This document shows, one piece after another, positions 12,601 through 15,600 of a DNA stretch of 64,000 nt. Made by a program: the position numbers and the translations under genes. The stretch is from Podarcis liolepis. Taxonomy: Eukaryota. The notes under the pieces were generated by a model. The model was given only the letters and a program-made list of their open reading frames with translations, searched no databases and was not told the origin of the DNA. Within the stretch, counting starts at the first letter, position 1; each line of letters opens with the position of its first letter. Location: assembly GCA_965112155.1 (NCBI GenBank), contig OZ218105.1; one strand, 5' to 3'.

Positions 12601-15600
12601 AAAATGGGAGTGCACACATAAGTAAGAATTTCCCTTTTTACGGTTAATCTAGTATATCTTTCCTTTATGTGGTTGGAGCATAAATTCCATGGTGAATATT
12701 CATGGTTCAGAACAACAGATAGGTAGTCTGCTGAGGCAGATTTCTGAACAAAAACGCAAGTGTTTGTTGAGAGGTTGCACAATTTCCAACTCATTATTGC
12801 TAGCTATTGTTCAACAACTCAGTCACCCCTTTATCTGTATGCCTGAGAAAACAAATCCTTTCAAAACTTTATTAGCTAAGTCTTTAACCTGGCTGATAAT
12901 TTCCCCCAAATACTCTTGTTTCAGGTTAACTGCTCACTTTTTGTTTTCAATTTCCCAGGTGTGTGTATGTGGGAAATTTTAATGCATGGCATAAAGCCCT
13001 TTCAAGGAGTGAAGAACAATGATGTGATTGGCCGCATTGAGAATGGCGAGCGGTTACCAATGCCTCCGAACTGCCCTCCCACTCTGTACAGCCTTATGAC
13101 CAAATGTTGGGCATATGACCCCAGCAGGCGGCCGAGATTTACGGAACTTAAAGCTCAGCTGAAGTAAGAATCGCTTTCTTGTCTGCTAGCATCTCGTGTT
13201 ATGTGCTAATCTTGTTATGTTAAGATATTGGCTTTAAAGGGATTGTGTTTGTGAGGGAGGAGGATGGAGCGAGGGATCGATGGCATTATTTTGAAATAAA
13301 AATATGCTTGTTCGTGCTTAGGATATACCGTATTTTTCCATGTATAAGACTAGGTTTTTCCCCTAAAAAATAATGTCCAAAATTTGGGGGTGTCTTATAC
13401 ACGGATAGATTCCCGCCCCCCATTTTCTTAAATCTGAGTCCCCCAAAATAGGGGGCGTCTTATACATGGGGGCATCTTATAGATGGAAAAATACGGTAAC
13501 TATTTTAAACAAAAGCATTTTTTTTTTTAAATAATCTTGGAATATTTGAATGAAATATTTGGTGTGACTGTTCTGTTTCATAGCCTCCCATCAGTATATA
13601 TTATGTTTGTCAGTCCCATTGAATACCTACCAAGTGCTACTTGTTTTCACCTTCAGTCATCTTATTTCCTTTCCCCCATGGTTTTACTTATCTACCTTTT
13701 TTTCATAGAATCTGTGGTTGATATTTCCCCCCTCCTTTTTATTACTTTTGCTGTGGAGGGTGAATTTGACCATACAGTCCTGCAGCTTGACTCTTGGAAC
13801 ATGTGTATTTGAAGGGCTCAATAGGCACTCCAACCCCTTTTACAGCTGCTTTGTAGATACTGCCCTAAATTCTCACTTTTCTGTTGCTTAAAATAGTGTT
13901 CACCTGGCTTTTTTGTTGGGGCTTCCAAGACAGTGGCCACTAATAGTAGTAAGCAGTATAATGATATAGCACACTATAAAAATAATAAAAGTAAAAGCAA
14001 AAAGCCTCCAGCAGAAGCCCCCTCCTAAAAATAGATAAAAAATGAGCACAGTAAAAACAACTAGTCACTGTCTTTGTAAAAATAAAAAAATTCCTTCCAG
14101 TAGCACCTTAAAGACCAACTAAGTTAGTTCTTGGTATGAGCTTTCGTGTGCATGTACACTTCTTCAGATACACTGAAACAGAAGTTGCCAGATCCTTCTA
14201 TATAGTGAGAAGGTGGGGAGGGGTATTACTCAGAAGGGTGGTGGGAATGGGAGATTGGCAGATAGCTGAGATGAGCCTGTTGACGACTCTTAACGACTGC
14301 AATAGGTCTTACAGGAAAAGGCAAGGGGTGAGAAGGTGAAAAATGGCTAGTCATGTATAATGAGATAAGAATCCAATGTCCCTGTTCAGACCCGGTCTCT
14401 CCATGGTTTTAAGTTTGGGAATGAGTTGCAATTCAGCAGCTTCTCTTTCCAGTCTATTTCTGAAATTCCTTTGTAGTAAAACAGCTACTTTGAGATCTTG
14501 TATAGAATGTCCTGGGAGATTGAAGTGTTCTCCTACTGGTTTCTCTGTTTTGTGATTCTTGATGTCAGATTTATGTCCGTTTATTCTTTGGCGTAAATCA
14601 TCTCATCTCAGCTATCTATTCTTCAGTGTATCTGAAGAAGTGTGCATGCACACGAAAGCTCATACCAATAACTAACTTAGTTGGTCTTTAAGGTGCTACT
14701 GGAAGGATTTTTTTTATTTTGACTATGGCAGACCAACACGGCTACCTATCTGTAACTGTCTTTGTAAAGGCTGTCTGAACTAGCTGTTTTGGGATGAGAA
14801 GTGTTAGGGTCAGGCCAACTTCCCCTTTGCCCCATAGGAGGTAATTCGGTCCTTGTAGTGCCTCAACCAGAAAGAAATTGTTCCCACGTGCTTGGTGTAG
14901 AGACATGGTGTAGGGTTCCAGATACTGAGTGAACAGTTAGAGATGTACAGGATGAGATGAATTGTTAAGAGGTGTTGAACTCCCTATATTCTAGCAAAAA
15001 GGACACTGATGTTTTCCCTATGTGTCAAGAAGTAAACACTGCTTCCTGTTTCACCTGAACAGGCGGAGTAGAGGATTGCTGTTCCTTAGAAGAACTTTTA
15101 TATTTTTCACAAGTCTTTTTTCTCCCTTCTGTGGACAAAGATCCCTTGGCCTTGCTTTCACTCCATAAAGGCTATGTCAGCCCTTTTACTTGCAAGGGTT
15201 GAAAATTCTCTGCTGGTGATGCAACCTTGGGCAGTTGTAGAGCACATTTCAAATATTTTATTTCCATGCCCTTGGAAACCAAATTGTTTAGAAGGTTTTC
15301 TTTTTTTGCATCTGCTCTTGACTAATTCACACATTATGGTAAGCCAGAGTTAATGTGAGGAAATAAACATAAATTAAGGAACACAACTCTGTCCTACTAC
15401 ACTAGTCTGAAGAACTTTGAGAAGATTGCCTTCTGTTTAGTAATACAACAACATGTAATTCCCTTTTAGGGCATGGACAAGGGTCACGGGTTATTGTGGC
15501 TAGTTGGATAATGGTATTTTCCTGAAAAATGCATTCTGATGGCTATTTCAAATAAAATATCAACTTTGCTAAGAAAATTAGTTGAATGCCTTCAAGCTGT

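Follow-up and report, generated by a model that had tools for sequence, protein, structure and literature searches.

The question raised by this locus is whether two hammerhead ribozyme motifs of opposite orientation, lying in an intron of PTK2 (FAK), act on the host transcript or are passengers of a mobile element. The window analysed is a stretch of 64,000 nucleotides from Podarcis liolepis. The reading that we favour, with a probability of about 0.87, is that of a 674-bp, 5′-truncated, head-to-head Neptune-type Penelope-like insertion in the PTK2 intron, whose hammerheads are likely inactive passengers locked in a predicted 97-bp duplex. The locus itself is a real, young and ordinary Penelope-like stub; the integration pattern of its family is the part that deserves a systematic look.

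Position of the insertion in PTK2

PTK2 exons were first located on the + strand by known FAK motifs, and the kinase end and the FAT domain (near 47,300) were then confirmed with Pfam. The insertion is framed by the following features:

13003..13163, + strand: PTK2 exon in which the kinase domain ends (positions 207-258 of the 258 in the Pfam PF07714 profile; 5′ border approximate)
13164..19796, + strand: PTK2 host intron of 6.6 kb, splice sites inferred from sequence

A GT donor is found at 13164, and the likely FRNK start codon is at 19843. Since the kinase exon ends at 13163 and the next exon begins at 19797, the insert falls within the intron separating the kinase and FRNK regions, as the preliminary description had placed it. 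In chicken and mouse, the FRNK promoter was mapped to the corresponding intron, with the mouse transcription start about 1 kb before the FRNK ATG (as described in PMC1570463). By analogy with mouse, the insertion would lie about 4 kb upstream of the FRNK start, and it would therefore be carried in FAK, not FRNK, transcripts. CpG content and CArG boxes were also examined in an attempt to place the FRNK promoter, and two CArG-like boxes were seen, at 13443 and 16026.

Anatomy of the insertion

The insert (14081-14754, 674 bp) is a head-to-head, 5′-truncated structure of two outward-facing element 3′ ends, of which a single one is tailed, enclosed by a duplicated target sequence of which the empty site has one copy. 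Its parts are:

14067..14080, + strand: target-site duplication, left copy, 14 bp, a direct repeat flanking the unit; single copy at the empty site
14081..14596, - strand: long arm, a 5′-truncated element copy (endonuclease C-terminus, 3′ UTR, hammerhead) with the tail-less end
14134..14171, - strand: minimal type I hammerhead, antisense to PTK2 and altered at one stem II position, 14155
14351..14602, - strand: 83-aa stop-free frame, the C-terminal part of a GIY-YIG endonuclease, beginning past the YIG motif
14597..14621, + strand: junction filler, 25 nt, holding a 16-nt templated patch
14622..14754, + strand: short arm, an inverted element 3′ end of 133 nt, with a 34-nt tail at 14721-14754
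14628..14665, + strand: minimal type I hammerhead, sense in PTK2 pre-mRNA; the canonical cut would come after C14661
14755..14768, + strand: target-site duplication, right copy, 14 bp, a direct repeat

The direct 14-bp flanks that had been reported were thus found at 14067-14080 and 14755-14768. The 516-nt long arm is 98-99% identical to many genomic copies, and 96.8% identical to a long natural copy, L093. The short arm, the only one bearing the tail, shows 98.5% identity to the final 133 nt of tailed copies. The two arms agree at 94 of 97 positions (14081-14177 against 14622-14718) and lie 444 nt apart; within the filler, the templated patch (14602-14617, 16 nt) is an inverted copy of 14260-14275. 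In a separate comparison, window positions 59897-60076 gave a 69% match to the sequence upstream of the element in L093, and this is probably a different, older repeat.

Two minimal hammerhead motifs

A search with a minimal type I hammerhead descriptor returned exactly two matches in the 64-kb window, both in the insert, and none in 300 of 300 dinucleotide shuffles. The two opposite-facing motifs proposed earlier were recovered at 14628-14665 (+) and 14171-14134 (-), facing outward. Both copies have CUGANGA and GAAA cores, an NUH site and the type I order. Stem I has 4 bp, stem II opens with a G-C pair after a single unpaired base, and in the + copy an AGCU palindrome at 14657-14660 replaces helix III. 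The 6-bp stem II (GTGTGC/GCACAC) that had been drawn is not possible around a 2-nt loop, and this stem folds as 5 bp with a CAUG loop. In the minus copy, a G>A change at 14155 replaces the pair that closes the stem II loop by an A-C mismatch. The + copy retains an intact catalytic core, which counts against the inactivity assumed in our preferred reading. An Rfam scan of 12000-17000, up to E=5, matched no hammerhead family, a result that is not decisive for motifs without helix III.

Genome-wide, the 38-nt motif is present in 9,879 exact copies (control, 0). The search for stem II variants gave just three variant matches, of which two had a different stem II (one fully paired, one mismatched).

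The motif closely resembles the minimal hammerheads described in the pLTRs of metazoan Penelope-like elements by Cervera and de la Pena 2014 (PMC4209133): the type I order, the CUGANGA/GAAA cores, the 4-bp stem I, the one unpaired base before stem II, the G-C first pair of stem II and the AGCU in place of helix III are the same, as are the thousands of copies and the opposite-strand pairs 100-700 bp apart. The window family, known here from sequence, is very uniform in its motif, nearer to the young D. virilis case than to the variable families of that report.

Family and clade of the element

The assignment to a Penelope-like element with minimal type I hammerheads holds, given the motif features above and the coding content of longer family copies. 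In these, one frame encodes a reverse transcriptase (RT), a CX4CxxC linker and a GIY-YIG domain; L011 has PF00078 and PF01541, and L096 has a 910-aa stop-free frame. The window copy keeps the C-terminal end of the endonuclease only, with no RT sequence and no tandem pLTR. The stop-free GIY-YIG fragment of the preliminary description stands as an 83-aa minus-strand frame, whose residues are the same ones that end the RT and GIY-YIG frame of L011 (Pfam PF00078 and PF01541); the catalytic VYAI and YIG motifs are absent, as the frame starts past both.

A CX2-5CxxC motif between RT and endonuclease is given for the Neptune and Nematis clades in PMC8557442, and it is the CX4CxxC between RT and the C-terminal GIY-YIG in longer copies that likens the window family to Neptune (PMC8557442). 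From these sequence features, the family appears to be a Neptune-type Penelope-like retrotransposon, by a linker motif that is common to Nematis and does not tell the two clades apart.

Two further systems were compared. PAc, the Poseidon of Anolis carolinensis, as presented in PMC11167929, similarly carries its hammerhead close to the 3′ end, and its tail is defined by two alternative ends. PAc belongs to the Penelope/Poseidon clade and is without the linker motif, unlike the window family; its protein-assisted cleavage was measured, whereas the window motif is known from sequence and folding (PMC11167929). A non-LTR retrozyme, which according to 10.64898/2026.07.22.740005 requires tandem units each with a hammerhead, was rejected as an identity for the insert, the window motifs being inverted and flanking endonuclease sequence.

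Age of the insertion and empty sites

The proposal that the insertion is young was borne out by empty sites in other sequencing runs. In run X3 (organism B), contig 20 joins 14066 to 14755, and contig 27 of run X9 (organism F) crosses the same empty site (listed as 14069 to 14758); these two related organisms thus lack the insert and one copy of the duplication. The contigs of X12 (organism H) stop at 14066 with no bridging contig, which hints at an empty site there as well.

Three flanking contigs of run X1 (organism A) were identical to the window. In this run, contig 5 has 676 nt, of which 613 letters match 14755-15367; the remaining 63 would be those of 14004-14066. In keeping with this, a contig of equal depth (30.5) has an A at 14034, 31 letters from its end. 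A second contig covers 14034 without this A. The length of contig 5 and this A of the same depth, against the unchanged second contig, suggest that X1 most likely holds an empty allele beside the window allele. The insertion is probably not fixed. Relative to the window, 13 additional bases are present at position 16058 in organisms B, F and H.

As one among thousands of equivalent stubs, and probably not a fixed one, this single locus matters little.

Folding and the prospect of cleavage in PTK2 pre-mRNA

Folding was computed with ViennaRNA, at equilibrium only and ignoring proteins. In the isolated + motif, stem I has a probability of about 0.1. In the whole insert, both stems I and II fall to 0.0 and the arms are predicted to form a duplex of about 97 bp with a mean pair probability of 0.968 (92 of 97 pairs above 0.9), with the same result in 1.4 kb of context; the duplex of about 95 bp proposed at first is thus supported by prediction. 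C14661 is predicted to pair with the left arm with a probability of 1.0, the computed energies being -163.8 kcal/mol for the duplex and -6.0 for the hammerhead fold of the monomer. Even without the left arm, stem I stays at 0.0, a competing hairpin in the right arm covering the core. On the minus strand, both hammerhead stems are likewise at 0.0.

A dimer partner was also sought. The inverted copy is antisense (the complement) in the PTK2 transcript and so cannot serve as one. A search of the window and of the 200 kb upstream of it, at up to 4 mismatches, gave no same-sense partner nearby. The only other sense copy is an exact one in an earlier PTK2 intron, 66.5 kb upstream of the insert; it lies in a same-family insertion with a tail and without an inverted arm (L166:7995-8243; G000:C8 near 6,644,100). 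A two-armed stub without the full motif was seen at L165:8674-8834.

These predictions bear on the idea that PTK2 pre-mRNA is cleaved by the sense hammerhead, aided by the element protein or by a second copy, so that full-length FAK falls relative to FRNK, the FRNK promoter presumably being downstream of the cut. The + core is intact, the insertion would sit some 4 kb before the FRNK start by mouse analogy (PMC1570463), a second sense copy exists in PTK2, and an intronic ribozyme modulates its host mRNA in Cpeb3, as reported in PMC10919898. However, the stems are at 0.0 in the whole insert and in its 1.4-kb context, and stem I remains so without the left arm; the other sense copy is 66.5 kb off, and relatives lack the insertion, which is most likely not fixed. 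Moreover, minimal hammerheads gave no cleavage as monomers and low cleavage as dimers in vitro, as described in PMC4209133. The Anolis hammerhead cuts only with the element protein and leaves no read ends in RNA-seq, and insertion in vitro does not need the motif, according to PMC11167929. The Cpeb3 ribozyme resembles the window motif in being a self-cleaving motif in a host intron, and differs in its measured self-scission, tuned to splicing, while the window motif belongs to a recent repeat copy that relatives lack and is predicted to be sequestered by pairing (PMC10919898). We consider this effect on FAK highly improbable. If it were true, a segregating ribozyme allele would tune a kinase against its own inhibitor, and the evidence is against it.

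Self-cleavage after 14661 in the pre-mRNA, as first suggested, is thus unlikely from the modelled stems (0.0 once the left arm is present, about 0.1 for the isolated stem I) and from published minimal hammerheads being inactive as monomers (PMC4209133) or protein-dependent (PMC11167929). The special link to FAK is unsupported, as the arrangement is a common insertion product of the family. Under our preferred reading of inactive passengers, the antisense arm would be transcribed first in PTK2 pre-mRNA and would capture the emerging sense motif, and the intron would then be spliced out normally.

In other genomes, inverted repeats are associated with A-to-I editing or slight splicing changes. 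The ribozyme could accordingly be irrelevant and the 97-bp hairpin could act as double-stranded RNA, being A-to-I edited or slightly altering the splicing of the intron; the predicted near-perfect duplex (92 of 97 pairs above 0.9), the 444-nt distance between the arms and the transcribed intron are all consistent with this. The hairpin, however, is separated from the 5′ splice site by 0.9 kb and from the 3′ site by 5 kb, and 27 such divergent pairs occur among the first 100 listed 20-mer matches, which implies thousands in the genome, so that any editing would be background. The passenger reading also allows for editing, and only a functional effect of the hairpin would be a true alternative, to which we give a small chance.

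Integration architecture across the genome

How would such a two-armed unit arise? In the mechanism that we consider likely for the preferred reading, the element endonuclease would nick the two target strands about 14 nt apart. Reverse transcription would be primed at each nick and would begin at one of two neighbouring start sites of the element, so that one end comes out tailed and the other tail-less. Both cDNAs would stop early (at 516 and 133 nt) and be joined via the 25-nt filler, and gap filling would create the 14-bp duplication. A hammerhead is present in each arm because the motif lies about 90-130 nt from the element 3′ end. This two-nick model, which we infer from the ends of the sequences, fits the report that both target strands are cut and extended in vitro, with two RT start sites (as given in PMC11167929). 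Inverted junctions have instead been read as self-priming by Arkhipova et al. 2013 (PMC3846280).

The family was surveyed from the 100 motif matches listed first, which fall into 86 loci. We fetched 80 regions, that is 80 of the 86 loci with the last 6 single loci left out, and these gave 79 distinct insertions (one region yielded no alignment, another contained two insertions, and one insertion had been retrieved twice). The sample represents a single repeat-dense chromosome end (100 matches in 5.8 Mb, against an average of 6.3 per Mb) and was selected for an intact motif. By a count made by eye, 28 of these first 100 listed matches sit in 14 divergent pairs less than 600 nt apart.

Outward-facing element pieces were found at both ends in 52 of the 79 sampled insertions. 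Five of the 52 were excluded from the count of tails, since one of their ends was an internal piece or lay over 65 nt away from the end of the element. Of the 47 that remain, 45 have a tail at exactly one end, while one insertion is tailed at both ends and another has no tail (binomial p 1.6e-11 against one half). The inverted insertions are flanked by duplications of 12-16 bp in 40 of 52 cases (12-14 bp in 36), against a maximum of 10 in 300 mismatched-flank controls. Among long copies, 4 of 20 are two-ended and all four are one-tailed. At L110:860-4276, two arms of 1.7 kb meet head to head in an almost symmetric insertion, and the tail is present on just one of them.

Immediately 3′ of the motif, 17,664 exact 20-mers were counted, and immediately 5′ of it, 4,090. 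This drop indicates that many arms stop over the hammerhead, with a sequence variant lowering the 5′ count somewhat. Perfect palindromic insertions centred on the predicted hammerhead cut site were seen at G000:C1:16906776-16906845 and C1:34385320-34385389, where a 2-nt microhomology could be the explanation. Of the listed copies, 241 have their start within 12 positions around the cut site; in the 100 of these that were read by eye, the first base after the cut is the most frequent start (24 copies). Cleaved RNA as the insertion template was considered and not accepted: 16 of the 24 joins are explained by 2-4 nt of stem I microhomology, and the class is tiny against the 9,879 intact motifs.

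Matches at 93-96% to most or the whole of the 674-bp unit were found at six other loci, as would be seen if the two-armed unit were a non-autonomous element with terminal inverted repeats that moves whole, in the manner of a MITE or a retrozyme. Arm lengths and the junction differ, however, at each of the six, which points to independent origins; arm lengths also vary widely over the 52 sampled inverted insertions, and there are no tandem hammerhead units at the locus. Given the differing junctions, MITE-like mobility of the whole unit was rejected, and the residual chance that we leave to it is very slight.

The head-to-head insertion of the preferred reading has published counterparts. Endonuclease-bearing Penelope-like elements, as described in PMC8557442 and PMC3846280, share the inverted 5′-truncated copy, the head-to-head arms and the direct duplication around the whole unit, and for them an optional tail of 30-40 bp at one end is given, to be compared with 34 nt at one end of the window insert. 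The target duplication of the window family is 12-14 bp, against 8-10 bp in the rotifer examples of the same two reports. The architecture of inverted copy, one-sided tail and duplication is thus already published (PMC8557442, PMC3846280). Our literature search, which covered main texts, turned up neither a tally of the one-tail rule nor an account of it in terms of paired priming; the motif family or end statistics may be contained in the supplements of PMC4209133 and PMC11167929.

We put forward tentatively, as a possibility that we hold to be rather doubtful, that integration in the family is strictly coordinated. One complex would nick the strands 12-14 nt apart with one RT start per strand, and the cDNAs would usually stop and anneal at the self-complementary stems of the hammerhead, so that the motif would shape integration without cutting. 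Were this the case, the young family of about 10,000 copies would be a ready dataset for the mechanism of Penelope transposition. The family is in any event more useful than the locus, since its youth, size and regular ends put numbers on Penelope integration features that the cited papers describe in words.

Other repeats in the host intron

Two other repeats were noted in the same window. Positions 13326-13498, in the same intron, hold a 173-bp high-copy MITE-like element, bounded by 24-nt terminal inverted repeats of 96% complementarity and with 28-nt repeats inside it, which was present in all four runs compared. Finally, a very high-copy GC-rich repeat, presumably a squamate SINE from its appearance, occupies 16386-16800.
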